Assembly (NCBI GenBank): GCA_031264015.1
Contig: JAISET010000169.1
Coordinates: forward strand, 1-33,387
DNA from: Deltaproteobacteria bacterium
GTDB lineage: Bacteria > Desulfobacterota > Desulfarculia > Adiutricales > Adiutricaceae
Direction of reading: 5' to 3'
DNA length: 33,387 nt
The notes under the pieces were generated by a model. It made no database searches and was not told where the DNA came from. It saw only the letters and a program-made list of their open reading frames with translations. Position numbers and translations under genes: made by a program. This document shows positions 6,891 through 32,798 of the stretch, in pieces. Position 1 is the stretch's first letter, and every line of letters begins with the position of its first letter.

Positions 6891-8408
6891 ATGAGAAGGC
6901 GAGAGTTTCCCGGGACGCTCCGGCGCGCGCCGGCCGCCGCCGTCCTGCTTGGCCTGCTGGCGGCCGCCGTGATTTTGGCGGGCTGCGCCGACCCGGTCAG
7001 GCAGACGGCCGGGCGGCCTTTCATAGCCGTCCCCATAGAGCCGTCGACCATCTACGGCGAGGCGACCATCGGGGAGGGCCGCTCCAGGGAGGCCATAGAC
7101 AGTCTCGAGGTGCCCGGCCTCCCCCACTCCGGCCCCCTGACCCTGGAGGACTGCGTCGAGCTGGCCGCCAGGGTCAACCCCAACATCGACAGCACCGACC
7201 AGGGCTACCTGGGGGCGATGTGGTCGCGCTGGCAGGCGATCACCGACTTCCTGCCCTCGGTGGGCATGAGCTACGGCCCCACCCGCTACAGCGATGCCAC
7301 CGCCACCGGCTCCCGGGACCAGTGGTCCTGGGGCACGGAAGTCCAGGTGCCGATCTTTACCGGCGGAAGGACGGTGGCCAGCTATCTCCTGGGCCAGCTG
7401 GGCCTCTCCGAGGCCGACATCAACCGGGTGCGGGCCAAGGAGGACCTGGTGCTGGCCGTCAAGCAGGCCTACTACGGCATCCTGGCCGCCGAGAAGGCCC
7501 TGGACGTGGCCAAGACCACGGTCGTCAACCTCCAGAGCCACCTCAACGTCGCCAGGAACTTCTACGACGTCGGCATGGTCCCCCAGAACCAGGTCCTCGA
7601 GGCCGAGGTGGAGCTGGCCCGGGCGCAGCTGCAGGAGACCAACCGCGGCCGCGAGCTCAACATCGCCATCTCCAAACTGAACGTCCTCTTAAGGCGCCCC
7701 ATGGGCCTGCCGCTGAGCCTCAAGGACGAGCTCAGCCAGCCCCGCTTCCCCATGACCCTGGACGACTGCCTGCTGACCGGCCTCAAGGACAACCCCGAGG
7801 TCCAGCTGGGCAGAAACCAGGTGGAGATCAGGACCAAGTCAGTCGACGTGGCCCGCAGCGCCCTCTACCCCACCGTGACGGTCAACTACACCAACAACTC
7901 CACGGGCACCACCGGCACCGTCTCCGCCACCAACCAGTGGCGCATGTCGGCCACGGCCAACTTCAACGTCTGGGAGTGGGGCCGGGCCCGGGCCGGGGTG
8001 GAGATCAACAAGGTCACCCTCAACCAGGCCATCGACAACCTGATGGCCCTGGAGGACAACACCAAGCTGGAGATCAACACCAACTTTTTGAATCTGGTCT
8101 CCGCCGCCAGCAACATCTCGGTCTCCTTGAAGGCCGTCGAGCTCGCCCGCGAGAACCTGCGCATGGTTTCCGAGCGCTACCAGGTCCAGGTGGCCACCAA
8201 CACCGAGGTCATGGACGCGCAGACCCTGTTCAGCACGGCCCAGTACGACTACTACCAGGCCCTCTACGACTACAACCTCTCCTGGGCCGCCATCGAGAGG
8301 AGCATGGGCCGCTCGGTGACCACCGCCGGCCTGGTGCCCCTGTCCAGGCCCGTCGGCACCCCCGGCTCCAGCCTGATCCCCCCGGAGCCCGTCGTCGTCT
8401 CCCAGTGA
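6891..8408 (+). CDS. tolC: TolC-family outer membrane efflux channel protein
   Basis: Signal/lipo-like N-terminus MRRREFPGTLRRAPAAAVLLGLLAAAVILAGC. Two outer-membrane-efflux-protein repeats with characteristic coiled-coil motifs (e.g. LTLEDCVELAARVNPNI, NQVLEAEVELARAQ, AVELARENLRMVSERYQVQVATNTEVMDAQTLF...YYQALYDYNLSWAAIE). The ATG at 6891 is preceded by AAAAGGA. Confidence 0.85.
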   Translation: MRRREFPGTLRRAPAAAVLLGLLAAAVILAGCADPVRQTAGRPFIAVPIEPSTIYGEATIGEGRSREAIDSLEVPGLPHSGPLTLEDCVELAARVNPNIDSTDQGYLGAMWSRWQAITDFLPSVGMSYGPTRYSDATATGSRDQWSWGTEVQVPIFTGGRTVASYLLGQLGLSEADINRVRAKEDLVLAVKQAYYGILAAEKALDVAKTTVVNLQSHLNVARNFYDVGMVPQNQVLEAEVELARAQLQETNRGRELNIAISKLNVLLRRPMGLPLSLKDELSQPRFPMTLDDCLLTGLKDNPEVQLGRNQVEIRTKSVDVARSALYPTVTVNYTNNSTGTTGTVSATNQWRMSATANFNVWEWGRARAGVEINKVTLNQAIDNLMALEDNTKLEINTNFLNLVSAASNISVSLKAVELARENLRMVSERYQVQVATNTEVMDAQTLFSTAQYDYYQALYDYNLSWAAIERSMGRSVTTAGLVPLSRPVGTPGSSLIPPEPVVVSQ

Positions 8409-9466: not shown

Positions 9467-9610
9467 GCGAACGGAGGCGGCGGCGGGAGTCTCGGACGAG
9501 GCCGGGATATCCGGCTGAAAACGCGGAAAATTTGGCGGCCGGGCGGAAAGAATGGCTGTCGGGCGGAAAGAATGGCTGTCGGACGAAAATTTGGCCATGA
9601 AAAGAAAAAA

Positions 9611-10312: not shown

Positions 10313-10575
10313 TTTTTCTCTCCCGAACAATAGTTCTCCCCAGAGATCTGTTCAACCCAGAAAATCAATTCTCCCAAGATTATTAATTCTCCCCATTAAT
10401 ATCGTTCCCCCAGGCCAGGTATTTCCCCCCGCAAATTTAGTTCTCCCAAGCAGGCTGTTTCTCCCACCAAATTGCGTTCTCCCCAGCAGGCTAACTCCCC
10501 CCTAAATTGCGTTCTCCCCAGCAGGGTAATTCTCCCCTCAAGTTACGTTCTCCCCAGCAGGGTAATTCTCCCCGC
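10313..10575. repeat. array of about 14 copies of a (A/G)TTCTCCCC motif, period about 18-19 bp, left flank of the IS1634-like gene
   Basis: Copies such as tagttctccccag, aattctcccaag, gcgttctccccagcaggc (three times) and taattctcccc, read directly. Confidence 0.8.
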
Positions 10576-11113: not shown

Positions 11114-13165
11114 TCAGACAATGGATGGAGGCAAAGGAAGAGAGAAGGAACTGAAAATCTCTTTTTGAATAGCATTTGGGATGTTAACATATTCGATATT
11201 CTTATATTTAAATGATTTAAGCAAGTTTAATTCTGATAAAATATTACTTAAAGTATATTTTTTAGATATGTCAGAGTTAATATAGATTTTATAAATATGG
11301 CTGAAGATAATATTAGCCAGAAAAATAATAAAAAATGTGTTGGCATAATTAGTTTTAGCCATGTAACTAAATCTAAAAAAGCTCATATGCTTTATGAACG
11401 CATTGTTCATATCAAAAATTTGGTTTCTTATTTTATAAATGTCATAAATTTCCTGAGGGGCCTGGTCGACATTGCTCAGAATGACGAAATATCCCTCTTT
11501 GGACAAGTACTTGTCCACTTCGGCCTCGTTGATGACAACGCCCCCGTCGTCTTGAAAGAGCAGGAATCTGTCGTACTCGGTGCGCCTGACCAGGCCGAGT
11601 TTGTCTTTTTGCCTCGCCTCCCGAATTCTATTGAGGTTGGTGAAGAAGGACTGCCGTTCGTTGAGGGCGGCCATGGGGTTGAAGTAAACGTAGGCCCGGA
11701 GCAGGCGGCCGCTGTTTTCCCCCGCCTCCTCCTCCGCTTTGGTCCCGCCTCTTTCAACGCCATTTTTCTCAGTCATCCCCCATTTTTCCTCCGCCATTCT
11801 CAATTTTTCCTCTGTTGCCAGCCATTTTTCCGTTCCTGTCTCCTCTTTTCTTTCCGCGTCCTCGCCGCCGCCTGACTTGGATAAATCCGCGGGCCGGCCG
11901 GCCTCCAGGTCGTAGACGATCTTGAGCCCCCGGACAGTCTCGCCTGCGGAGCCGGTGGCGATGTAGTTGGAGGCGCTGTCTATGGAGCCGGAGGCAGATT
12001 TGATGATGTCCAAAACCAGCCGGTCGGCCGCGGGCGCGCGCAGGGCGAAATTGACTTTGTTTTCATCCAGCAGTTCTTTGAGGAAATTTAAAGAGTAAAA
12101 ATCCTCGGTTAAAAAGATGTCGGCGTTCCGGCAGTCGAAGTCTTTCTCCAGCATGCCGCGCACGTCCGCAAGCACCTGCCCGTAGGTCCGCTTCTCGTCG
12201 ACAAAATGCTGGCAGACGGGCAGCAGGGAGTCCCGTCCGTAGAGGGTGACAATGTTGCCTTTGCCGACTTGATTGGCGGACTGGCCGGCCTCGGCAAACC
12301 TGCCCAACTCGGCGCTCTGCCTGAGAATGGACTTTGTCTCCGTCAGGACGAAATCGCTTTCGTTGTGGCGTCGGTTCCAATTTTTAAAGAAAGATTCTCT
12401 TTTTATGGGAAGAATATTGTTGATAAGAGAAGTCAGCTTGGTAAATGAAAATAAATTTCTGTTTATGTCGGTGTTGTCTTCCAGCCAGTAGCCAATCTCT
12501 TCCAGCTGTTTGTTGGTTGACAGTAGAAAAAATAGGAAATTATTGATAAATTCATAGTTAAAGCTAAAAATATCCTTTAAATTTGATTCTATATCCAACT
12601 GTCTGACTATTTGAGAAAAGAAATATTGCACGCCAAAATGCCTGAACCCGCCCGCCTCCATGGGGTTGAACTTGGCGGAGGATCTCGCCGGCCCCGCGGC
12701 CTCGCCCCCGGTAACAATCCTCTCCGGCGCCCGGACCGCCCGCCCCGAAGTCGGCGCCGCCTGCCCTGAAGCCCGGACCGCCCGGCCGGAGGCGCGGTCC
12801 CCCCGGACGTCCGGGGCGCCCGCGGCGGCAAATGTCCGGCAGCCGTCAACCTCCCCGGCCGGCCCATCCGGCGCGCCCGGACGGGCGGACCCCGGCCGCT
12901 CGCTTGTCTTCCCCGCCTCCCCCCCCTCCTCCGTCTTTCCAGGCAGAGGGTAGATCCGCCCTTGAATTTTGACGGAGACGGCGGAGGTCGTCTCCAAAAA
13001 CGACCTCTTGAAGACCAGGTCGCCGGTGGCCGGGTCAACCTTGCCGATGTAGAACTTCGTGTTCTTGTTGGACTTGCTGGTCGGGTCGTAGTTGGAGACG
13101 GACTCGACGATGTAGGTGAAGCCCTTCTTATTCACGAACATGTACGACTTGGAAGCCACGACCAC
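11114..13165 (-). CDS. IS1634-family (IS4 superfamily) DDE transposase, apparently intact. The true start may be the MFVNKK methionine at 13141.
   Basis: N-terminus MFVNKKGFTYIVESVSNYDPTSKSNKNTKFYIGKV resembles the IS1634-family N-terminus (MF..KK...Y..VES). C-terminal GYFVILSNV and YDIYKIRNQIFDMNNAFIKHM resemble the IS4-type Y-x2-R-x3-E-x6-K region, though F replaces E and the spacing is off by one. The low-GC gene body contains GC-rich in-frame inserts. Confidence 0.6.
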   Translation of the reverse strand: MVVASKSYMFVNKKGFTYIVESVSNYDPTSKSNKNTKFYIGKVDPATGDLVFKRSFLETTSAVSVKIQGRIYPLPGKTEEGGEAGKTSERPGSARPGAPDGPAGEVDGCRTFAAAGAPDVRGDRASGRAVRASGQAAPTSGRAVRAPERIVTGGEAAGPARSSAKFNPMEAGGFRHFGVQYFFSQIVRQLDIESNLKDIFSFNYEFINNFLFFLLSTNKQLEEIGYWLEDNTDINRNLFSFTKLTSLINNILPIKRESFFKNWNRRHNESDFVLTETKSILRQSAELGRFAEAGQSANQVGKGNIVTLYGRDSLLPVCQHFVDEKRTYGQVLADVRGMLEKDFDCRNADIFLTEDFYSLNFLKELLDENKVNFALRAPAADRLVLDIIKSASGSIDSASNYIATGSAGETVRGLKIVYDLEAGRPADLSKSGGGEDAERKEETGTEKWLATEEKLRMAEEKWGMTEKNGVERGGTKAEEEAGENSGRLLRAYVYFNPMAALNERQSFFTNLNRIREARQKDKLGLVRRTEYDRFLLFQDDGGVVINEAEVDKYLSKEGYFVILSNVDQAPQEIYDIYKIRNQIFDMNNAFIKHMSFFRFSYMAKTNYANTFFIIFLANIIFSHIYKIYINSDISKKYTLSNILSELNLLKSFKYKNIEYVNIPNAIQKEIFSSFSLPLPPSIV

Positions 13166-13205
13166 CGTCCTCTCGACCCGACGCCCGGGGGCGAGGCCGA
13201 CATAA

Positions 13206-13547
13206 TGGGAGAACTAACCCGGGGGAGCCAGGCCCCCGTGATTGGGCGAACTACCCTTGGGAGAACCAAGCCCGCCTAAAGGGGGAACCGACGCGGAAGA
13301 ACGCCCGGGGGAGAACAAGTTTGACTGAGGGGAGAACCGACCTGGGTTCTCCCTGCAGGCCCGGCAATGAGAAAGGCGAAATCCGGGCGCGCAAGGCTCG
13401 AAATTGGGATCATTATACTCCGATGAAGACAAAAAGAACAGTTTGTTAAACGAAAGAACAGTTTTTCAGGTGATTTTCCCAACGATTTTCAAGCCGCCGA
13501 TCAAGTTCTCCCTAGAATGGAGAACCACGACTTCTGGGGAGAAACAT
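13206..13547. repeat. array of about 10 copies of a GGGAGAAC motif, in inverted orientation relative to the left array, with one palindromic pair GTTCTCCCTAGAATGGAGAAC. Right flank of the IS1634-like gene.
   Basis: Copies gggagaactaaccc, gggcgaactaccc, gggagaaccaagcc, ggggagaacaag, ggggagaaccgacc, gggttctccctgcagg, gttctccctagaatggagaacc and ggggagaaacattt, read directly. Confidence 0.8.
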
Positions 13548-20939: not shown

Positions 20940-21170
20940 TTTCCCGAAATCCGCGTTTCGCGGAAAATCAAAGGCCGCGGACGGCGACAACCCTGAAAAA
21001 TTACAATCCCCCCCCGGCCGCCGTCCGCGAAAACTCAACCGCGCGAACGCTCGAACATGCAGGCCGTCGGACAAAAATTCCGGCCGCCCGCGGCGCGGTC
21101 GTCAAAAACTTAAACTCCGGCCGCCGGGGCAAAATTCTGAACCCGCGGCGCCCCGCCAAAAATCAGCGGG
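20940..21170. repeat. about 8 degenerate 28-32-bp repeats, each starting with an A5-6 tract followed by GC-rich CCGGCCGCC-like sequence (phased A-tracts)
   Basis: aaaatcaaaggccgcgg / aaaaattacaatccccccccggccgcc / aaaactcaaccgcgcg / aaaaattccggccgcccgcgg / aaaaacttaaactccggccgccgggg / aaaattctgaacccgcggcgccccgcc / aaaaatcagcggg. Confidence 0.6.
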
Positions 21171-22119
21171 AGGCGCTCAGATAGTCGAACCTGAACTCCA
21201 TGGCCGGGTTGTCGCTGGCCCCCTGGAAAATGGCCGGGAGCGGCGGGAAGGCCGAGCGGTCGATGGCCTGCTGGACGGACTGGTCGAAGACCTCGTCCCC
21301 GCTGGAGCGCCGGACGTTCTTGCCGGCGATGCGGCCGTCCGGCTGGATGACTATGACCACGGTCACCTTGAGGTCGGGGCGCATGGACAGGGACGGGGGC
21401 ACCCAGTTGGCGCGGACTATCTCCCTGATGCGCGAGTAGTAGGCCATCCTCTCGGGGTCCAAAAGGACGCCCGTGTTGGAGCCGCTCTGGTTGGAGGAGG
21501 TGCCGTTGCCGAGCCCGCGGCTCTGGGCGATGTTGCCGACGGCGCTGTTGATGGCCTCGTCGGCGTTGTCGGCCTCGACCCGGCGGCGGATCTCGTCGAT
21601 GGACCTGTTGATGGAGGCCTGGGGGTTGGGCCTCTGGGCCCTGGGCTTGGGTTTGGGCGGCTCCTCGACGGGCTTGGGGGGCGGGGAGACTTTCGGGGGA
21701 GGCTCGGCCGCCTTGACCACGGGCTCGGGGACCGTCTCGGGGGGGCGCTCGCCGATGGGGATGGCCTCGGTGGGGGGAATGACGGGGGTGACCATCTGCT
21801 CGAGGGGGGTGGGCTGGGGGACGACCGGGTCGGTCCTGGGGAGCTCCACCACGTCGGGCCCGCGGTAGGACGGGTCGACGGGGGCGGGCGGCGCGGCCGG
21901 GGCCGGGGGCTCCAGCCCGCCCAGGAGCTGCACGGTCATGACCTCGAAGGGGAGCTCGCGGGGGGCGCCAAGGTTGAGCCAGCCGGGCACGAACAAGGAG
22001 CCGGCGAGCACCGCGGCGTGGAGCAGCACGGAGACCAGCAGCACGGGCAGAAGGTTCGCCTCCCCGGCCCCGACGGCCGGGTCGCTCCCGGGACGGTTGT
22101 CCAGCGGCGCGGGTCTCAT
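21163..22119 (-). CDS. tolA: TolA/TonB-family energy-transducing protein (N-terminal TM anchor, Pro-rich spacer, TonB-type C-terminal domain)
   Basis: TM helix LLPVLLVSVLLHAAVLAGSLFV. A long Pro/Glu/Lys-rich spacer (PVEEPPKPKPRAQ). The C-terminal domain ends ...AMEFRFDYLSASR. It lies downstream of tolQ/tolR. Confidence 0.7.
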   Translation of the reverse strand: MRPAPLDNRPGSDPAVGAGEANLLPVLLVSVLLHAAVLAGSLFVPGWLNLGAPRELPFEVMTVQLLGGLEPPAPAAPPAPVDPSYRGPDVVELPRTDPVVPQPTPLEQMVTPVIPPTEAIPIGERPPETVPEPVVKAAEPPPKVSPPPKPVEEPPKPKPRAQRPNPQASINRSIDEIRRRVEADNADEAINSAVGNIAQSRGLGNGTSSNQSGSNTGVLLDPERMAYYSRIREIVRANWVPPSLSMRPDLKVTVVIVIQPDGRIAGKNVRRSSGDEVFDQSVQQAIDRSAFPPLPAIFQGASDNPAMEFRFDYLSASR

Positions 22120-22369: not shown

Positions 22370-22810
22370 CTACCGCGGCGTCTGCTCGCGGCGGTCGGCG
22401 GGCTCGGTGACCAGGCCGACGTTGGTGATGCCGGCCTCGCGCAGGGCGCCCATGATGGAGGCCACCCGCCCGTAGGGGACGCTTTGGTCGGCCTTCAGGT
22501 ACAGGCTCTCGGTGCCCTTGACGCGCATGACCTGGCGCACCTGGGCGTCCAAATTGTCGATGCTGGCCAGGGTCGTGCCGTCAAGCACAACCCCGCCGTC
22601 GGCGGTCACCGTCAGCATGACCAGGGACGAGTCGGTGCTCATGACGTTGGCGTCGACCTTGGGCAGGTCCACCTCCAGGCCCTGGGTCATCATGGGGGCG
22701 GCCACCATGAAGATGATCAGAAGGACCAGCATGACGTCGACCATGGGGGTGACGTTGATCTCGCTCATCATGGAGCGCCCCTGGAAGGAGCCTCCGTTCC
22801 CTAAAGCCAT
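22370..22810 (-). CDS. tolR: TolR/ExbD-family biopolymer transport protein
   Basis: SEINVTPMVDVMLVLLIIFMV signature, 146 aa, directly downstream of tolQ. Confidence 0.85.
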   Translation of the reverse strand: MALGNGGSFQGRSMMSEINVTPMVDVMLVLLIIFMVAAPMMTQGLEVDLPKVDANVMSTDSSLVMLTVTADGGVVLDGTTLASIDNLDAQVRQVMRVKGTESLYLKADQSVPYGRVASIMGALREAGITNVGLVTEPADRREQTPR

Positions 22811-22811
22811 G

Positions 22812-23588
22812 TCAGAACCCCCCGCCGTCGGACTGTGAGGCCGGGGGCCTCTTCATCAGGTCGCGCTCGAGAATGTTTAAAAAGTCGCTGGTGAAGTTGG
22901 AGATGCGCGTCTCCAGGATCCTCAGGCGGCCGTTGAAATAATTGAAGAAGACGACCGCCGGGATGGCCGTGGCCAGGCCCGCCGCGGTGGCGATCAGGGC
23001 CTCGGAGATGCCGGGGGCCACGGCGGCCAGGTTGGCGGAGCCCCTGAGGCCGATCTCGTGGAAGGAGCCCATGATGCCCCAGACGGTGCCGAAAAGCCCT
23101 ATGAAGGGGGTGGCGTTGCCGCAGCTGGCCAGAAACGGCAGGAACTTGAAGAGCCTGGAGCTCTCGGCCGAGGCCGTCGAGCTCAAAGTCCGCTGGACGT
23201 TGACCAGGGCGGGCCCGGTCTCCAGCTTGGCCTTGTAGACGCGGTTGAGCTCCTGGTAGCCGTTTCTGAACACCTCGGCCAGCGGGGAGCCCGAGTAGTC
23301 CTGGGACTCCGCGTAGAGGGCGGCGAAGGTGCGGCTCTTCCAAAACTTGGAGAGAAACTTGTCCGACTGGCCGGAGGCCCTGGAGTACTGGACCAGCTTG
23401 ATCAGGACGATGGCCCAGGAGGTGACGCTGGCCAGCAGGAGTGTCAGCATGATGGCCTTGACCATGGGCCCCGCGGACATGACCATGGTCAGGATTTCGG
23501 ACTCCGCGGGGCCGCCGCCCAGGGTGACCTCGTTGACGGCCGTCGCGCCGGCCTGGCCCGCGAGGACCAGGATGGAGACAGGGGACAT
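22812..23588 (-). CDS. tolQ: TolQ/ExbB-family (MotA/TolQ/ExbB) proton channel protein
   Basis: Three-TM topology with the conserved GLFGTVWGIM and LIATAAGLATAIPAVVFFN segments. AAGGAAG RBS upstream of the ATG at 23588. Confidence 0.85.
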   Translation of the reverse strand: MSPVSILVLAGQAGATAVNEVTLGGGPAESEILTMVMSAGPMVKAIMLTLLLASVTSWAIVLIKLVQYSRASGQSDKFLSKFWKSRTFAALYAESQDYSGSPLAEVFRNGYQELNRVYKAKLETGPALVNVQRTLSSTASAESSRLFKFLPFLASCGNATPFIGLFGTVWGIMGSFHEIGLRGSANLAAVAPGISEALIATAAGLATAIPAVVFFNYFNGRLRILETRISNFTSDFLNILERDLMKRPPASQSDGGGF

Positions 23589-24379
23589 TAATTCTTCCTT
23601 GGCTATTCCGATAAAGTTAATTGACAGGCCGCCCCCCCCGCGAGGAGCCGCCCCGCCGACGCCTTGCGGGCCGGCCGATCCCGGGGGCGTCCGGCCGGAT
23701 GGCGGGCGCTCATGGTCAGCTGCGTATTATAGAGGATTGTCAGCCCAGCGTAAAGCAAATTTTTTCTATTTCCCCGGTACTTGCCCTAAAAGACCCCCAA
23801 ATCCTCTAAACTTACGCCCGGAACCGGCCCCCCCGCCCCGACATCCCCGCGACCGGACACCGGACCCAGCGGCGCGTCCCCCCCCCCAGCGGCCGGCCTC
23901 CCGGACCCTTGGTCGCAAGATGACCGGGGGGCCGCCCGAGACGAGGTGGGGGACGACCCGGACCTCCGGCCCGAAGACCCGGAGGATGATTTGCTCCGTC
24001 AGCGCCTCCTCCGGGCGGCCCCTGGCCGGGATCCCGCCCTTTTCAAGCAGGTGGAAAAGTCGCGGTGTTTGGCGGCCAGACTTACCCATAGTTAAAGAAG
24101 CCGACAAGATTATATCAAAAAAATTTTAGTTAATTTAGAATCTTATGCTATAAGTTCCTATGGCGAAGGGACATTTTCAGCGACGCGTTCCACCCCTCTC
24201 CAGTCCGAAATCAGGGGGCGGCATGAGAAAACCCTCCTCTTCCGGGCGGCAACCGCTGGGATTATTTGGGGCCGTTTAAATGATTGTTTGAAGATCGATT
24301 GATAAAACTATCAAAAAAATGCCCAAAGGCAGGTTAAGACTGTTTAAAGGCTGATCAAAGACTATGTAAAGTTTTGCCG

Positions 24380-25690
24380 ACTGGTTGTTCGCAGCTTGCC
24401 GGCCTGTTCAAAAGTTTCTTACAGACTGTAAGTATTCCATCAGTCGCGGTTGCCGCCCTGTTCAAAAGTTTCTTACAAACTGAAAGTATTCCAACAGACG
24501 CGGTTGCTGGCCGGCTGTCCGACCTGGTGTCGATTCGGTTGTCCAACGACATGTTCAAAGGCCATAGAGTGAATGTTTAAAAGACCATTATAAGCTGTCA
24601 AAGGTGTGTCTAAGTGTTTTAATAACATGTTTAACCTGTTCAAAAGTCTGTGAAAAAGTCCTCCCCGGGGCCGGGCGAGGGACCGCCGGCTTTATTTTGA
24701 CGCGAACCGGCCGGACGGGCACAAGTATGTTCGACAGCCTGTCAGTCAGGTGTCAAGAAGACTGTCGGCGCGGGTGTTCAGAAAGTTGTCGAGAGTCTTG
24801 TCCAGGAATAAGTTCAAAGGGCCGCGCGGAGGTTTGTTCAGAGGGGTGTCCAAGACATCGGCGGCAGGCGTGCGGAGCATGTTCATAAGTTGTTCGGGGT
24901 TGTTCGCAAACTGTTCACAAGGCTGTCAAGGCCTGTGTCGAAAGGGGTTGTTCAGACGGATGTCGCAAATATGGGATTAGAAAATCATTAAAATTATTTT
25001 CAGAGGCGCGTCAATGAGATGTTCGAAAGGTGTTCAGAGCCGGTTTATCAGGTGGTCGCGTCTGTTCGGAAGCTGTCGATTCAGCTGATGGCAGCCTGTT
25101 CATTTGCCTGTTTAAAAACGTCATTCTTCCATTCCGCTCGACTTCCCCCATCCCTGGAAGCGGTCATGTGATTGTCAGAGGCCGCTCGCAAAGCCGCCCT
25201 CTCTGGAACTCTTGAAATAGAACTTCACCAGCGGCAGTCTTTTCCAAGTTGTTCATAGAGTTGTTTAGTTTCTGTAATAACTATTGTTTAAGAGCTGTTT
25301 AATAATTGTTCAAATGATTTTGTCAACTGTTCAAAGGGTTGTCGAAAGATCGTCATTCTGGCGGGCAAAGGCCGAGCACCGTTCTTTCAAAGACGAACAG
25401 GTCTATCGGCCACAGTATGTTCGTCAGCTTGTCAATCTGCTGTCAAGACGAGTGTGGACTGGATTGTGCGGACTGATGCTGAGAATGTTGTTCATAGTGA
25501 TGTTAAAAGACTGTCTGGAGGAATGTTTAGCGTGGCGTCAACATCATGCGCGACAAACTGTTCAAACCCTGTTCATGGATGTTCACAGCCTGTTAAAATC
25601 TGTTTATTGGCTGTTCGGGGTTGTTCATAAACTGTTCAAAAGTCGGCAAGGTCCGGACTATTGTTCCGGCATCAGTTATTTGAAATGCTG
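24380..25690 (+). repeat. array A: about 1.3 kb of degenerate, single-orientation 10-12-bp repeats with core CTGTTCA(A/N)A. It includes a 54-56-bp tandem duplication at 24401-24510.
   Basis: Dozens of TGTTCA/TGTCRA cores about 11 bp apart, e.g. gcatgttcataagttgttcggggttgttcgcaaactgttcacaaggctgtcaaggcctgtgtcgaaaggggttgttcagacgg. Almost no reverse-orientation (TGAACA) copies. The plus-strand ORFs here arise because the motif lacks stop codons. Confidence 0.8.
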
Positions 25691-26046
25691 AAAATCCCTA
25701 AATAGTCAGTATAATGTGATGTTACTTCTTATATGTTCTCTTATTTTCCTAAACTTTAAATCTTCTTGTTTAAAAAAACGATAAACACATTTCTGTCTCT
25801 TTTGAAGGGATCTTAGAATAGAATGCGCTCTAGCATCAAGAGTTTCCTTATTTCTTATATGGGCCTGTGAATAAATTAGACATTGTATATAGTTATTTAT
25901 ATATTCTACATGGTTAATTTCTGGACTATAAGAAGGAAAATAATGCAGTTCAATAAACTAAAGACTGAAGGGCGTAGCCAGATCCTGGCAGGGGCGCCGA
26001 CTTTTTACGGTTTCGTCATCCATGCCGTTCCTGTTCCGCACCCGCT

Positions 26047-26715
26047 TCATGAAATTCTCCGCCAAATCTGCGGTTCGTAAGGACGCGGGGTGAATCCCTG
26101 GCATGCGGCATCGAACATATAGGCGGCCAGTCTCTGGAGGACAGCAACAGTTCTGTCCCATATGCACCATTTTGGCGCAAGGCTTTCACAGGATCCAAGT
26201 GTAATGTCCGCAAAATCATAGGGAAAAGGGCTGCCAATCTGCTTCAACATCTGTTGCAACACGGACATCTCATTTGAAAGCGGATAAATCTTGTCAAGAT
26301 CCTTCAATGCTTCGGCAGACTTTAAAGCTCCTATTCTTGAAGAAAAAATTGCCAGATCCACGTAATCCATCGTAGCGTTCCGCAAAAGGATGAGCGCGGA
26401 CTTGATTATGAGGATTTCGCGGTTGGTCGGAACGAAAACCTGCCTGCCGTCCTGCTCTACGGCTACGGTCTCGAGCGGAACGGTCCTTTTGAGTTCTTTG
26501 ATGCAAGTTTCGATGTTTCTAAAATTCACCACGTTGCGCATCGGGGAAATGAACAAGGACGGCTTGCAACCGATTATCGCATCGAACTTACTCATAATTA
26601 GGTCGCGGTCAGGATGAGCGCCCAGCGAGGCGGCAACATGAACGCCGTCTCCGATAACAGACTGTGACCTGCAAATTGCGCTCAGTACCGAGTCCCATTC
26701 AGGTATTTCTTTCAT
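26047..26715 (-). CDS. hypothetical protein (222 aa) in the low-GC island, immediately downstream of the nucleotidyltransferase-like gene
   Basis: Open frame with ATG at 26715, 4 nt after the upstream stop. Low GC. No recognisable motif. Confidence 0.4.
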   Translation of the reverse strand: MKEIPEWDSVLSAICRSQSVIGDGVHVAASLGAHPDRDLIMSKFDAIIGCKPSLFISPMRNVVNFRNIETCIKELKRTVPLETVAVEQDGRQVFVPTNREILIIKSALILLRNATMDYVDLAIFSSRIGALKSAEALKDLDKIYPLSNEMSVLQQMLKQIGSPFPYDFADITLGSCESLAPKWCIWDRTVAVLQRLAAYMFDAACQGFTPRPYEPQIWRRIS

Positions 26716-26719
26716 TGCT

Positions 26720-27211
26720 TTATCTGCTGATGAATTGTAATTTTCTGAACATGACTCCGAAAATCCAGTTGGGAACGTCATATTTTAAAGTCTCGGGCCA
26801 CACAAGGTTTCGATTGACGATGGCCACGCATTTACTTTTTATCATTTCTGGCGCCGTTACCGTAATAAATTTCATCCCGCGATGCTTAAAAGTAACTGTA
26901 TCCAAAGAAACCGATCTAGTCATTTGCTTGACGCTAGTTTTTACGCCAAGAAGCTGTCCAAGAATAGCTGAAGGAGAGGCTACGTAATTAGTTTTCCAAT
27001 CGCTGTTTGATTACAGTATATTCTGGATTTCATCGAAATTATGTTCCAACACCCGCATCGAATAATCTGCATCGTGAGACATGCGATGGCCCGCGTGAAG
27101 GATAACAGCGCATCCCCCTCCTAGTACGGCGCCAGGCACAAGCTCATGGAACCTGCAGGCCGCAGTCAGCATTTCGTCCCAGGTGGGTAGCGGTTTAGAA
27201 ATTCTGGACAT
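26720..27211 (-). pseudogene. AbiEii/AbiGii-type nucleotidyltransferase-family (toxin-like) gene interrupted by a single in-frame TAA at 27011-27013
   Basis: The N-terminal fragment (27011-27211) carries GAVLGGGCAVILHAGHRMSHDADYSM, matching the G-G-T-A-L-x-L-x-x-G-H-R-x-S-x-D-x-D motif of this family. The same frame reopens directly after the TAA and continues ...SNSDWKTNYVASPSAILGQLLGVKTSVKQMTRSVSLDTVTFKHRGMKFITVTAPEMIKSKCVAIVNRNLVWPETLKYDV. Confidence 0.5.
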
Positions 27212-27425
27212 AGCTCAACCAGAAGCGGTAGCGCTGACTAAAATAGATATCATTGTAGCTTTCTTTGCATATATGTTTAACACCGTCCTTGACTTTCTTA
27301 TCTCTGTGAACGGCTTCTCGCAGTTCTGCCCAGTCAACAAACTCTCCGTGGGAAATAATCTCGTCTATCGCTGACAGGCAGAATTCGGTTTCGGGAGTAA
27401 GATCAAGATTTCTGTGAATCATCAT
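27195..27425 (-). CDS. small protein (76 aa) overlapping the start of the nucleotidyltransferase-like gene by 17 nt. Possible cognate antitoxin/regulator.
   Basis: The TA-like overlap geometry supports pairing. There is no recognisable HTH motif, so the call is weak. Confidence 0.3.
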   Translation of the reverse strand: MMIHRNLDLTPETEFCLSAIDEIISHGEFVDWAELREAVHRDKKVKDGVKHICKESYNDIYFSQRYRFWLSYVQNF

Positions 27426-28357
27426 AACATGCCCGGGCGCGTCCTCCTTCTATGAATATAGACAAAACTATGAAACAAGCTCCAGACTTAAAACGTTCGA
27501 AGATTTCGAGCATGGTGCCCGAAAAAATCACTAAAAATATATCCGGTTTTTCATCGTAACGCAAGTGCTTGAAACGATTAAGCCATGCCGGAGAGACTTC
27601 TGAAACTTCATATCGGTGCCCCTTCCAGGAACTGGCTGCGTCCTTCAGACTTTAATCTGAGGAAGGCTTCGAACGAGGCTAGTGATACAAGATGTTCCAG
27701 CATGGTTGTTTGACACCCCAGTTTTTGTCGGCTATGATTCCACCCAGTTCTTCAGCGTTGACCTCTCGTTGACTTTTTACGGTTTCGTCCTGTGGGCCCG
27801 GCATCGGCAAACCGGGGTGACTGGACGAGGGTCCTGATGCGCCTCTGGAAGCAGTGGAAGAGGGCGAGGACCAGGTCCAGAAACCTGCAAACGCTAGGAA
27901 TCCACAGGATACAGGCGTGGACGTGGGCCAACACCCGTATGAGGTGCTGGTGCGCGGCATACAGCAGAGATTGGAGGGGCCCTGGAAAAAAGGGACGGCA
28001 AACTGACGGTGGTCAGTTGGCTGGCGGTCATTCTGAAAGCTAAAGTGCAAGTGGCTAATTTGGAACTCTACTTGTCAAACAAATGTTAAAATTGACATAT
28101 TTACCACTTTTAGCTTATAACATATTGAAAGTTTTAATATTTCATTTATAATTGCATATTAATGGCCGTTAGATTATGTTGACGACCATTTATATTAGTT
28201 TTTTAATCTGATTAAAGATTGCAAAAATATTTTTTCACTATTAGTTAATTTTCGAACGCTAAAATCATTTATTAAATTTCTAAATTTGCAAAATAATATA
28301 TTAAACTATGATTAGATATAAATATAAATATACATGGACAAACTGTCTTGTCAAAAA

Positions 28358-28458
28358 TTTATAGATTTTCAACGAATTCACTACTTTTGACAAGGATTTT
28401 TGGCAAGTTTTAGACAAATTGTCCTGGCAGTTTTAGGACAAAATGACTTGGTGTTAAC
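28358..28458 (+). repeat. about 100-bp element (copy 1) made of three tandem 23-bp iteron-like units (ttttgacaaggatttttggcaag / ttttagacaaattgtcctggcag / ttttaggacaaaatgacttggtg), preceded by about 280 bp of extremely AT-rich DNA
   Basis: About 94% identical to copy 2 at 32698-32798. Internal 23-bp periodicity read directly. Confidence 0.85.
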
Positions 28459-29750
28459 AGGATTCTCAAAGAAAAGTGTGCCAAAAACTTTACCAATTCT
28501 CATTGAAAAGCGTGCCATGATAAAAAATGACATGTCTTATGCTCATAAATATGCGCCGCTATGGCGCGCTAAAGTTGGAAGTCTGATGTTGAGAAAGTGT
28601 TCAGGGAGCAGTTTGGAGGATTGTTCAGAGGGGTGTGCAAGGCATCAGCGGCTGTTGTTCAGAGATTGTCCGGCGCCTGTTCAGAGCCTGTTCATAAACT
28701 GTTCAAAAGTCGTCACAGTCACGACATAGTCGGGCGCTTAAGATTTTATCCTGACGACCTGCCGACAGTTTTACAAATTGTTGAAAAGGTTGTCGAAAAG
28801 TTGTCCAGGCGTGTGTTCGGCGGCAGTTCATGTATGTTCAAAGGCTGTCAGACAGAATCTCTGATTGTTCAAAAGTGTTCAGAGCGAGTGTTGAAACCGA
28901 TGTTCGCATGACGTTCAAGGCGTTCATAACATGTTCGGAAAGTTGTGCAAACGGCTGTCGAATGATTGTGCGGCGGCCGTTCACAAATAACTTCCACTCA
29001 GGAAAGCCTGGCAGAATAATCATTGAAGCCGACTCGGGCCAACCCTTTTCCCCTCCCCTTTTTTTCATCCCCCATCCCTCCGTTCCCCTTTCCCCTTTCC
29101 CCTTTAACTCTTCAACTCAAACCCCTGCTTGATCATTGTCAGACAACCAGGCGCCAGCTTCATGAAAAACGACTGTCCAAAGCCCTGTCCAAAGCCATGT
29201 AGATGGAGTTGTTCAAAAATACTCGCCTGCCTGTTTATAAGCTGTCTGTTCGATTGATTGGACGCGGTTCATCAGGCTGTTCAAACCAACCGTCTTCCCC
29301 GCCCCGCGCTTCTTCCTTGGACCCTGTTCAAAAGCTGTTCAAAACTTACTCAATTCTAGAAATAGCGCCGCTTCACAGCTTCGTTTTTTCAGGACGTTCA
29401 TGGAATTGACAAATAAAAATATCCCAAAATTGTTCGTTAATCTGTAATAAGAAAGATGCCATGACAAAAACTATTAATTTTTCGCCTATATTTGTTGTTC
29501 TGGAATTATTTTTAAACGGCCGTCCATGGCGCGTCCATCCCGTCTATTTAATTCTATTCTATAAATGCTCGGAAGCAGTCGCGACAGTCCGGTCCGGCCT
29601 TAATAACGAGCTTAACCCCGTTCTGATGACGCCGTCCATGGACATTTGGCCAAAAACCACTGTTCACCCCCCGTTGGAAGCCGGTGAAAGTTAGTTTGGC
29701 TGTTCAAAGTCTGTCGCAAGTTGTGTTTGACAGGCTGTTCAAAGATTGAA
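28458..29750 (+). repeat. array B: second CTGTTCA-type 10-12-bp periodic array, about 1.3 kb, same orientation as array A
   Basis: e.g. gtgttcagggagcagtttggaggattgttcagaggggtgtgcaaggcatcagcggctgttgttcagagattgtccggcgcctgttcagagcctgttcataaactgttcaaaagtcg; ctgttcaaaagctgttcaaaac; ggctgttcaaagtctgtcgcaagttgtgtttgacaggctgttcaaag. Confidence 0.8.
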
Positions 29751-29879: not shown

Positions 29880-29985
29880 GATAATGTATGTCGCGGGGAG
29901 GATAAGGACTTGTCAGGACTGATAAGGAATGAAGACAAGGACTGATGAGCGCTGAGGATTAAGTTCTGAGGATAAGGACCGCGGC
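29880..29985. repeat. about 5 tandem degenerate copies of GGATAAGGAC-like units (about 13-bp period) downstream of the pspF-like gene
   Basis: gaggataaggacttg / tgataaggaatg / agacaaggactg / gaggattaagttct / gaggataaggaccg. Confidence 0.6.
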
Positions 29986-30033: not shown

Positions 30034-31221
30034 CTAGCCGAGCTTGCGCCGCAGCGAACGGAAGCGGTGGTAGGTCATGCCCAGGAGCTCCGCCGCCCTG
30101 GCTTGGTTGCGCCGCGCCTCCTCCATGGCCCGCTCGATTATTTCCAGGCTCCTGCGGCGGATGATGAGGTCGAACTCGCCCGGGGCCAGGGGCAGGCTGA
30201 TTTCCTCGTCGTCCGGCTTCGGATATTGCCCCGGCTTCGCCCCCGTCCGATCTCGGCGAAACTCTTGTTCCCGAGAAAATTCCCGATCCCGGGAACGCTC
30301 CCCCTCCCCTGAAAACTCCCTTTCCGAAAGATGATCCCGCTCCCGCCCCGCGTCGTCGCCCTCCTGCCGCGGCCCGTCCGGATAAAGCTCCTCGTCAAAC
30401 TCCAGCAGTTCCGGGCCGATCATTATCTGCCCGGAGACGGACCCTTTCTCGTCTTGGCCGTCCCCGCCGCCGTCCTCGTCCGAGTCGCCCCGCGCCCGGT
30501 AGACGGCCCTCTCGACGACGTTCTTGAGCTCGCGGACGTTGCCGGGCCAGAAGTAGGTGTCGAGCTTGCGGAGGGCCTCGGGGGTGAAGACGGGCATGAG
30601 CTCCTGGCCGAGCTCCCGGGCCATGCGGGCGCCGAAGAAATGGGCCAGGTAGGTGACGTCCCCCGGCCGGTCGCGAAGAGGCGGCAGGGTGACGACCTCG
30701 AAACTGAGGCGGTCCCAGAGGTCGGGCAGAAAGGCGCCGGTCCGGCACATCTTTTTCAAGTCGGCGTTGGTGGCGGCGACCACCCGGACGTCCACCGTCA
30801 TCTCGCCGGAGCCGCCGACCAGCTGGAAGGAGCCGTACTCCACCACCCGCAAAATCCTGGCCTGGGCGCCGGCCCCGAGGTGGCTGATCTCGTCCAGAAA
30901 CAACGTCCCGCCGTCGGCGGCCTCGAAGCGGCCGGGCCTTCTGCCGCGCGCCCCGGTGAAGGCCCCGGCCTCGTGGCCGAAAAGCTCGGCGTCTATCAGG
31001 CCAGGCGAGAGGGCGGCGCAGTTGAGGGCGACGTAGGGCCCCTGCCAGCGCCGGGAGAGAAAATGCAGCCTGGCCGCGGCCAGCTCCTTGCCCGTCCCCC
31101 TCTCCCCGAGGAGCAAAACCGGCCGGTCGACTTTGGCCGCCCGGGAGAGCCGCTCCTTGACAGCCAGGATGCTCTCCGAGGCGCCCAGCAGATCCGGGAC
31201 GATGGAGGAGGGCCCGCTCAT
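30034..31221 (-). CDS. pspF: PspF-type sigma-54-dependent transcriptional activator: AAA+ enhancer-binding domain with no N-terminal regulatory domain, and a C-terminal HTH after an acidic/Arg-Glu-rich insert
   Basis: Almost colinear with E. coli PspF: LLGASESILAVKERLSRAA, PVLLLGERGTGKELAAARLHFLSRRWQGPYVALNCAAL, ELFGHEAGAFTGA (GAFTGA motif), GRFEAADGGTLFLDEI, VRVVAATNADL, TYFWPGNVRELKNVVERAVYRA, and a C-terminal AAELLGMTYHRFRSLRRK HTH. The start ATG at 31221 overlaps the stop of the upstream gene (ATGA). Confidence 0.85.
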   Translation of the reverse strand: MSGPSSIVPDLLGASESILAVKERLSRAAKVDRPVLLLGERGTGKELAAARLHFLSRRWQGPYVALNCAALSPGLIDAELFGHEAGAFTGARGRRPGRFEAADGGTLFLDEISHLGAGAQARILRVVEYGSFQLVGGSGEMTVDVRVVAATNADLKKMCRTGAFLPDLWDRLSFEVVTLPPLRDRPGDVTYLAHFFGARMARELGQELMPVFTPEALRKLDTYFWPGNVRELKNVVERAVYRARGDSDEDGGGDGQDEKGSVSGQIMIGPELLEFDEELYPDGPRQEGDDAGRERDHLSEREFSGEGERSRDREFSREQEFRRDRTGAKPGQYPKPDDEEISLPLAPGEFDLIIRRRSLEIIERAMEEARRNQARAAELLGMTYHRFRSLRRKLG

Positions 31222-32327: not shown

Positions 32328-32642
32328 TTTTTTCCTCGTCGGCGGCGGGGCCGGGGCCCGGCGTCCGGGCGCCTCGGAAAGACAGTTCCGGCGCGGCGGG
32401 CGTCATGCCCCGGTTTGATTTTCAAAACGTCCTGGCGAAAGGCGTCGGCGTCAAATTTACAATCTGTTCGATTTGTTCCTGGCTTGCTCCGAGAAAAAAA
32501 TCTGTCTGAAAACCCGTGGGTTCGGGGGGCGCGGGGAGAGGCTTAAAACCGCCCCCCCTCCCGAAACTCCGCCGGTCAAAATTCCCGGCCCGGCAGTTGT
32601 CCTGCCAGCCGCTGCTTGTCTAATCTGATCTATCCTATTCTG

Positions 32643-32697
32643 GCAAGCGTTCACGGGGTCCCTGGTGACCCCTGCCAGGGACCCCGTGAACGCTTGC
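32643..32697. repeat. perfect 23-bp-arm inverted repeat (gcaagcgttcacggggtccctgg / 9-nt loop / ccagggaccccgtgaacgcttgc) abutting copy 2 of the 100-bp element
   Basis: Read directly from the sequence. No convincing T-run follows. Confidence 0.85.
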
Positions 32698-32798
32698 TTA
32701 TAGATTTTCAACGAATTCAGTATTTTTGACAAGGATTGTTGGCAAGTTTAAGACAAATTGTCCTGGCAGTTTTAGGACAAAATAACTTGGTGTTAACA
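32698..32798 (+). repeat. about 100-bp iteron-like element, copy 2 (direct repeat of 28358-28458)
   Basis: About 6 mismatches over 100 bp relative to copy 1. Confidence 0.85.

Follow-up and report, generated by a model that had tools for sequence, protein, structure and literature searches.

The stretch of DNA analysed here, hereafter the window, comprises the whole of a 33,387-bp contig from a metagenome-assembled genome (MAG) that NCBI labels Deltaproteobacteria bacterium. Between its tolQ gene (product MDR1051176.1) and the gene for a PspF-type sigma-54 activator lie two arrays, A (analysed as 24380-25690, in whole-window coordinates) and B (28458-29750). Together they amount to about 2.6 kb of units of 11-12 bases that all run in the same direction around the core CTGTTCA, and a low-GC island lies between them. 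The motif, its orientation and its position in the gap between the PspF-like gene and tolQ are common to three lineages, namely the window with its close relative L136, and the more distant loci L137 and L144. In this report, we describe the anatomy of this array and its conservation, and we weigh what it might be for.

In both arrays, the unit has the form N-TGT-Y-N-A followed by 4-5 bases (e.g. CTGTTCAAAAG, TTGTCGAAAGG and ATGTTTAAAAG), and the consensus is cTGTTCAaAa. Array A has 20 copies of the exact hexamer TGTTCA and array B has 16, every one of them on the plus strand and none on the minus strand (36 of 36 in a single orientation; binomial p = 2.9e-11); the other 30.8 kb of the window hold five copies on each strand. 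The looser TGTYNA is present 45 times in A and 25 times in B, against 3.3 and 3.0 in shuffled sequences, and 21 and 9 of its neighbour spacings, respectively, fall at 10-13 bp (shuffles, 0.03 and 0.04). Not one of 2000 shuffles reached the observed counts and spacings, and the dense, single-orientation arrays reported in a preliminary description of this DNA are thus real. Successive units are spaced mainly by 12 and 11 bp, with multiples at 21-24, 32-36 and 42-48 bp, and unit lengths of 10, 11, 12 and 13 bp are intermixed.

The 11-bp-class periodicity of that description was also borne out by Fourier analysis, with peaks at 11.5 bp in array A (power 4.3; shuffle maximum 3.3) and 11.25 bp in array B (power 4.4; shuffle maximum 2.8). 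These peaks are a modest excess over the shuffles. In a sliding 400-bp scan, peaks of 10.75-11.5 bp were confined to 24.2-25.4 kb and 28.4-29.0 kb, the signal at array A starting about 180 bp ahead of the array itself; apart from these, the scan threshold was exceeded only by an 18-bp array spanning 10.2-10.8 kb and, at 22.0 kb, by a weak peak of 6.5 bp. The period does not, as had been supposed, keep the core on one face of the helix. It is 11.5-11.75 bp (the upper value from L137, below) rather than 10.5 bp, so that successive cores rotate by 34-43 degrees on relaxed B-DNA and leave that face.

The arrays of the window are degenerate. Counted as TGTY starts, there are about 60 recognisable units in A and some 40 in B, hence about 100 in all; the earlier figure of some 100 copies in each array corresponds to array length divided by 12. 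Only 15-18% of 12-bp slots retain TGTTCA in the window, versus 54% in L137, and Tandem Repeats Finder reports the window arrays as fragments because their units are so degenerate. Array A holds a 54-bp tandem duplication (24396-24503) and is interrupted by several non-repeat stretches of 60-90 bp. Array B is dense at 28580-28990 and patchy past 29040, with clusters at 29160-29750, and it contains stretches of 71 nt and 37 nt that are homologous to array A. The GC content of the arrays is 0.46-0.50, and that of the flanking genes is 0.63-0.75. The window array looks degenerate, relaxed or decaying, and any function may be relaxed there. We also note a polypyrimidine tract inside array B (29043-29105, TTCCCCT x 3.3) and another, CCCTTTTCCCCTCCCC, inside the L137 array at about 7560-7610; the tracts in these two lineages are rich in G-runs on the gene-sense strand.

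Exact look-ups of the TolQ and TolR sequences of the window gave no match. Relatives of the locus were found by a TolQ homology search, in which the closest TolQ proteins came from further MAGs labelled Deltaproteobacteria bacterium and from Candidatus Adiutrix sp. In L136, the TolQ of which is 98% identical to that of the window, the same arrays are interrupted differently: A is retained over its first 900 bp, window positions 25284-25620 give way to a zeta-toxin island of extreme AT-richness, and the roughly 630 bp of B that remain run up against dnaG. In L137 (TolQ 76% and PspF-like protein 62% identical to those of the window), the gene order is that of the window, i.e. malic enzyme, PspF-like gene, array and tolQRA, and the array is a single unbroken 1.5-kb tract with 53 copies of GTTCA. 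All of these have one orientation, the same relative to the genes as in the window. This array is phase-coherent at 11.75 bp (Fourier power 28.4 versus a shuffle maximum of 3.5), and it contains higher-order blocks of 23, 35, 47, 58, 82, 106 and 152 bp, all of them multiples of about 11.7. In L144 (TolQ 75% and PspF-like protein 53% identical), the motif occurs at the same place and in the same orientation, as clusters of 2-5 units with AT-rich spacers between them, within a repeat of about 560 bp.

These loci also settle the relationship between A and B. In L136, the motif that ends array A (CTGTTCAAAAGTCGGCA.GGTCCGGA) is followed after just 47 bp by the start of array B, and the island of the window is absent at that position; the 2.8-kb island is therefore an insertion. 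Taken together with the uninterrupted array of L137, this junction indicates that A and B are, on comparison of these sequences, halves of one ancestral array that was split by a toxin-bearing insertion. They are not two arrays bracketing an island, as the preliminary description had presented them.

The arrays of the three lineages cannot be aligned with each other, and the 200 bp upstream of tolQ display no similarity by eye among them, but the core is the same. The base after CTGTTCAAAA is mostly G in the window, C in L137 and A in L144, which constitutes a lineage-specific spacer consensus, and the dominant unit length is 11-12 bp in the window, 12 bp in L137 and 11 bp in L144. Conservation along the unit is uneven: in L137, a position-neutral wrap-around alignment assigns 0.75-1.56 bits to the bases of TGTTC and only about 0.4 bits to spacer positions 1, 8 and 12. 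Thus, the core has been kept while spacers and unit length drifted, across three lineages with 53-76% identity between orthologues, a pattern that fits a constrained core with freely drifting spacers. A shared core accompanied by drifting, internally homogenised spacers fits the pattern that would be expected if the units were read by a trans-acting factor.

Could the array be the remnant of a protein-coding gene with a four-residue repeat, (LFKx)n? The three plus-strand frames of the unit are all free of stop codons, and the 12-bp unit of L137 is a multiple of three. Open reading frames (ORFs) of 94-135 amino acids occur in the arrays of the window, exclusively on the plus strand, and gene callers annotate ORFs of up to 218-232 amino acids within arrays. 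However, the four unit lengths are intermixed, no ORF spans an entire array in the window or its relatives, and the ORFs are broken in every lineage. Fourier analysis revealed no period-3 signal in the arrays; the array ORFs have no Pfam match, and a search with an array-ORF translation found no homologue among 5.8 billion proteins. Further, the arrays diverge just as intergenic DNA does. Between the window and L136, identity is 94.5% over the first 900 bp of array A and 93.6% over 28460-29040 of array B, compared to 94.1% for other intergenic DNA and 98.7-99.2% for tolQ, tolR and tolA. Because divergence is intergenic-like and there is no period-3 signal, coding is ruled out and the notion of a coding remnant is effectively refuted. 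The arrays are non-coding, as was first proposed.

A role at the level of RNA fares little better. The covariance models of Rfam 15 gave no match at gathering score in the window, L136, L137 or L144, and the cleanest array folds worse than its shuffles on both strands (z of +1.7 and +1.4). A structured RNA is therefore unlikely. Transcribed UGUUCA (or UGAACA) repeats could instead form an unstructured sponge for a single-strand RNA-binding protein. Such an element would require a single orientation, and the weak predicted structure of both strands would be expected of it, but no promoter-like site lies within the arrays or reads into them on either strand, the Rfam search was empty, and divergence proceeds at the neutral rate. 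The TGT core and the spacing of 11-12 nt agree better with operators in double-stranded DNA (dsDNA), and we know of no RNA-binding repeat that fits them as well. We therefore give the RNA sponge little credence.

Other classes of repeat were considered and rejected. Units of 11-12 bp with neither spacers nor cas genes are not clustered regularly interspaced short palindromic repeats (CRISPR), which have repeats of 23-50 bp with unique spacers; the preliminary description was correct on this point. Transposon ends were dismissed on the grounds that A and B share one orientation, and integron attC sites and repetitive extragenic palindromic (REP) elements for want of inverted arms. A LexA box (GTTC-N7-GTTC) was set aside, since the Myxococcus-type box fails to align and the dominant spacing in L137 is N8. 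Searches of the arrays by blastn against 72,556 plasmid records (PLSDB) and 50,697 phage records returned no relevant match. The 21-mer common to A and B, TGTTCRYAAACTGTTCAMAAG, gave only coding or chance matches in exact scans of genome and metagenome collections that do not contain the source contig, and a loose scan of viral contigs for triple TGTTCA yielded noise and coding repeats. The repeat had initially not been recognised as a described family, and we likewise found none that matches it, either by sequence search or in the literature searched.

The features of the locus are collected in Table 1. The island, which had been credited with a toxin-like nucleotidyltransferase, does encode a distant relative of the AbiEii/AbiGii nucleotidyltransferase toxins; the kinship is visible only by way of a homologue that carries PF08843, and scanning the ORF itself against Pfam and NCBIfam gave no hit. 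The exact 19-nt repeat on either side of the toxin module may mark the junctions of a small inserted cassette. Around its right end, at 28001-28500, GC is 0.28. The second copy of the 101-nt element at its right edge adjoins a PDDEXK_9 gene and comes right after a perfect palindrome with 23-nt arms (about 32627-32682) that contains GTTCAC. The island of L136 (2808-4560 of that locus) is a different one at another point of the array, with a zeta toxin, a small ORF and a stretch of 19% GC. No integrase is carried by the islands inserted in the arrays of the window and L136, and toxin-antitoxin DNA seems to have landed in the array repeatedly without one.

Table 1. Features in and around the array (window coordinates).
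Feature	Position	Strand	Remarks
tolA/TonB-like gene	21163-22119	-	after tolR
tolR	22370-22810	-	after tolQ
tolQ (MotA/ExbB family)	22812..23588	-	5' side faces array A
sigma-70-like promoter match of tolQ	23726-23754	-	promoter-like match
Array A	24385..25665	+	about 60 head-to-tail units NTGTYNA(N4-5); exact TGTTCA in 20
Low-GC insertion	25666..28459		2.8 kb, between the end of A and the start of B
19-nt direct repeat GACTTTTTACGGTTTCGTC	25999-26017 and 27771-27789		exact; flanks the AbiEii-like toxin module
AbiEii-like toxin ORF	26047-26781	-	244 amino acids; within the island
Small ORFs	27011-27211, 27195-27425	-	within the island
101-nt element	28359..28459	+	right edge of the insertion; second copy at 32698-32798, 95% identical, 4.3 kb apart
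Array B	28460..29750	+	16 exact TGTTCA; same unit type as array A
PspF-type sigma-54 activator gene	30034..31221	-	Sigma54_activat + HTH_8 (AAA+ and Fis-type helix-turn-helix); 3' end faces array B

The remaining genes of the contig include those for DsbD, thioredoxins, an M48 peptidase, a TolC-like OEP, PhzF, a hydantoinase and an SPFH protein in addition to the tolQ-tolR-tolA-like set, and by its content and its synteny with the chromosomal contigs of relatives we take the contig to be chromosomal. Array A starts about 800 bp upstream of tolQ and at least 600 bp from the nearest promoter-like site, that of tolQ; a sigma-54 promoter is found neither upstream of tolQ nor in the arrays. About 280 bp separate the end of array B from the stop codon of the PspF-type gene, the product of which has no receiver or sensor domain in a domain scan. 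The adjacency of array and activator that had been remarked upon is conserved in L137 and L144. Given that tolQ and the PspF-type gene are both on the minus strand, the TGTTCA strand is antisense to both.

Several smaller features were observed in the same DNA. Between the tolQ promoter region and array A, the GC-rich interval 23766-24107 (minus strand) has a translation (…RGRPEEALTEQIILRVFGPEV…) that looks, on inspection by eye, like the C-terminal end of an ABC-transporter ATPase, and it may be a pseudogene fragment of such a protein. Just beyond the 3' end of the PspF-like gene there is a tandem repeat of 3.2 x 10 bp, GATAAGGACT, at 29901-29932; the counterpart position in L137 holds 3 x 15 bp of AGTTCCCGCCCTCTC. 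An intergenic tandem repeat of 3 x 20 bp, GCGGAAAGAATGGCTGTCGG, occupies 9523-9582. A second single-orientation array, built from an unrelated unit, lies at 10330-10575 in the low-GC gap that separates a PhzF-like gene from a gene for an IS1634-like transposase; about 12 units of (A/G)TTCTCCCC recur there every 18 bp, with higher-order units of 36 and 71 bp and a Fourier power of 12.2 at 18.0 bp. Three ORF pieces at 324-1483 make up a DDE transposase of the ISAZ013 family with a broken frame, and the IS1634-like transposase gene, which is low in GC, lies at 11114-13213. The transposase genes and toxin remnants suggest a genome with active or recent traffic in mobile DNA and with gene decay.

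What, then, might the array do? Tentatively, and by analogy to known operators, we favor the view that it is a high-capacity array of binding sites for one dsDNA-binding protein that assembles head to tail, an explanation that we hold to be quite possible although short of probable. We infer protein binding, the class of the protein and the effect of the loaded array. The array is a vertically inherited, non-coding chromosomal element between the PspF-like gene and tolQ. Each unit would comprise a recognition core of 6-7 bp, (c)TGTTCA(a)A, and a few free bases, repeated head to tail every 11-12 bp; a sequence-specific protein would occupy each unit, with its protomers in tandem head to tail. 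The closest match to such a unit would be a winged-helix protein of the OmpR/PhoB type, and a protein resembling a centromere adaptor could be an alternative. So loaded, the locus would carry tens of protomers and could serve as a high-capacity sink or as a nucleoprotein filament. On relaxed DNA with an 11.75-bp repeat, bound protomers would complete one spiral every 8.4 units, or about 99 bp. Were binding to untwist the DNA to an 11.7-bp helical repeat, negative supercoils would also be stored; by simple arithmetic, untwisting to 11.75 bp per turn lets a 1.5-kb array absorb about 15 negative turns.

A bolder version of this proposal is that the array is an undescribed functional organelle of the chromosome: a phase-coherent (11.7-bp) platform of about 100 sites that is loaded end to end by one head-to-tail protein, and that acts as a titration buffer for a regulator or as a structural or topological device. 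We consider this rather unlikely. The topological variants of the same idea could be a filament that stores about 15 negative supercoils per 1.5 kb, a polar barrier to replication forks or transcription, or a non-canonical chromosomal centromere.

A number of observations weigh against protein binding. No candidate gene for the binder lies next to the array in any lineage, and the only DNA-binding genes nearby encode sigma-54 activators with a Fis-type helix-turn-helix. Such domains normally read inverted repeats. Ordinary sites of 2-3 units are absent outside the arrays in 142 kb of related DNA, and the unit may be 11 or 12 bp long, whereas PhoP responds to a difference of a single base pair. 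Comparison of the window with L136 shows the arrays diverging as fast as intergenic DNA, with core positions that are only weakly protected (3.6% versus 6.5%, p = 0.04) in a test that is biased, the cores having been defined on one sequence. The arrays tolerate insertions and a deletion of about 360 bp, and the low share of slots that retain TGTTCA in the window, relative to L137, speaks against constraint as well. Finally, six further TolQ relatives (64-75% identity; L139, L140, L142, L143, L145 and L146) have no array in the upstream DNA present on their contigs. For L139, L140, L145 and L146 this upstream DNA measures only 0.7-2.2 kb, which makes them uninformative; L142 and L143, with about 8-9 kb, are alone informative.

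Many of these same facts would be accommodated by the main rival explanation, a functionless satellite. Here, a short unit would have been amplified by slippage and unequal crossing-over in gene-poor, decaying intergenic DNA, and concerted evolution would keep it recognisable with no protein required. Neutral divergence between strains, tolerance of island insertions and deletions, the degeneracy of the window array in comparison to L137, and the missing array upstream of tolQ in the six relatives (four of them with the short contigs just mentioned) are all in its favor. Further, L137 and L144 have the higher-order repeats that are typical of unequal crossing-over, and the contig carries another oriented array with an unrelated unit (10330-10575) together with broken insertion sequence (IS) elements; the genome of the window seems to accumulate such repeat and IS DNA. 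On the other hand, three lineages whose proteins differ by 24-47% have retained the same core of 9-10 nt along with its strand and locus, even as spacers and unit length changed, and information is unevenly spread along the unit. Satellites free of constraint would be expected to arrive at differing consensus units, and bacterial genomes usually shed useless DNA. We rate a functionless satellite as unlikely, although it is a contender to be taken seriously.

The oriented packing of the sites also raises the matter of replication, for which the array could be a DnaA-titrating or origin-like cluster or a polar barrier to the fork. The relaxed DnaA box is TTWTNCACA, and the low-affinity boxes of E. 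coli are spaced 11 bp apart in one orientation. The reverse complement of the motif, TTTTGAACA, is one position off this relaxed box; the sites are oriented and tightly packed at a unique locus; AT-rich stretches adjoin the arrays (GC 0.28 in the window and 0.19 in L136); and dnaG adjoins the array in L136. However, the mismatch sits in CACA, the conserved part of the box, and boxes like TTATCCACA, with one mismatch allowed, occur 5 times in 33 kb versus 2.8 expected, with none inside the arrays. Moreover, the flanking genes do not diverge from the array, there is no switch in GC skew or orientation, and the AT-rich stretches belong to strain-specific insertions. A role in replication is thus very improbable. 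An oriC or DnaA-box cluster as such was rejected, there being no canonical box cluster and no skew or orientation switch at the arrays.

The outcome matters in either case. If a protein coats the array, the locus would be a natural transcription-factor sink or nucleoprotein filament on a bacterial chromosome, through which regulator buffering, supercoil storage or the organisation of the chromosome could be approached in an uncultured, Candidatus Adiutrix-related lineage. Should no protein bind, it would be a rare documented case of long-lived bacterial satellite DNA with concerted evolution, and a recurrent landing zone for toxin-antitoxin DNA besides.

As to known systems, bacterial satellite DNA and variable-number tandem repeats resemble the array in their higher-order blocks (23-152 bp in L137, about 560 bp in L144), in the homogenisation of spacers within a lineage, and in the variation of length and organisation between lineages and strains. 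They differ in that the core, strand and position of the array are kept at 24-47% protein divergence, with uneven conservation along the unit; simple neutral repeats are not expected to keep these three. Short tandem sets of the motif were also encountered in phage contigs. In L148, three tandem CTGTTCAAAA-like units (7562-7600) lie directly 3' of a gene for a 407-residue tyrosine integrase, in the manner of arm-type sites, and 2-3 such units lie upstream of small ORFs in L151 (4087-4108) and L154 (13362-13382 and 13636-13657). These are probably protein sites, and they may hint at a family of proteins able to read the motif. Such arm-type sites of integrases and operators of phages differ from the array in having only 2-3 units, in residing on unrelated mobile elements and in sharing no flanking similarity with it.

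Plasmid centromeres offer a second comparison. In the 159-bp parC site of R1, 11-bp iterons in two groups of five surround the par promoter, and parM/parR follow directly downstream (PMC2241845); direct repeats of 12 bp number seven in tubC, and stbS comprises two blocks, each with five 9-bp repeats set 2 bp apart (bioRxiv 10.1101/2022.04.29.490116). Like the array, R1 parC with ParR, pBtoxis tubC with TubR and R388 stbS with StbA employ short direct repeats in a single orientation, and each is cooperatively coated by a small DNA-binding protein into a filament (PMC2241845; bioRxiv 10.1101/2022.04.29.490116). By this analogy, an adaptor might coat the array and so link a segregation motor to the chromosome or to an integrated replicon, as in the ParR-parC, TubR-tubC and StbA-stbS systems, and the array does occur at a single locus in the DNA available. 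The known sites, however, are sets of 7-10 repeats at the promoter of their own partition operon on plasmids, whereas the array is 10 times longer than any of them, is not at a par promoter, is chromosomal, and stands in conserved synteny beside the housekeeping tol genes. Among the ORFs scanned, neither the window nor the syntenic loci contain a gene for ParM, TubZ, ParA or an adaptor, the plasmid records gave no match, and several relatives lack the array in the DNA available. We therefore consider a centromere-like site improbable. The preliminary description had likened the arrays to type II centromeres, and the likeness extends to short direct iterons of about 11 bp in one orientation, an architecture common to many systems. 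Membership of that class does not follow, given about 100 units on a chromosome, no ParM/ParR-like gene in the window, L136, L137 or L144, and the empty PLSDB search; as an analogy, the general notion of iterons arrayed for protein binding still stands.

The operators of OmpR/PhoB-type regulators are closest to the unit of the array. The tor box, CTGTTCATAT, occurs as four direct repeats that are bound by TorR (PMC9239176). In Streptomyces, PhoP recognises 11-nt direct repeat units with the core GTTCAY, up to six per operator; its binding spreads cooperatively from good units to poor ones and falls sharply upon a 1-bp change (PMC2275107). As in these operators, the unit of the array has a core of 6-7 bp containing TGTTCA/GTTCA and 4-5 variable bases, repeated head to tail at about 11 bp. 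The array consensus CTGTTCA(A/T)A(A/T) shares 7-9 of 10 positions with the tor box, the number varying from unit to unit, and some units read CTGTTCATAA; well-conserved and poor units are intermixed in the array, as they are in the class III operators of PhoP. The differences are those of scale and setting. Operators have 2-6 units at the -35 region, whereas the array has 50-100 at a distance of at least 600 bp from the nearest promoter, with no cognate regulator gene in the window or the syntenic loci, a unit of 11 or 12 bp according to lineage, and no ordinary operators with the motif elsewhere in the 142 kb. The unit is of a known kind, a direct repeat like those of the tor box and PHO box, but a scale of about 100 chromosomal units is not known for that kind. 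Textbooks describe short head-to-tail sets of 2-10 operators or iterons, but not a chromosomal array of ten times that size that is passed on by vertical inheritance.

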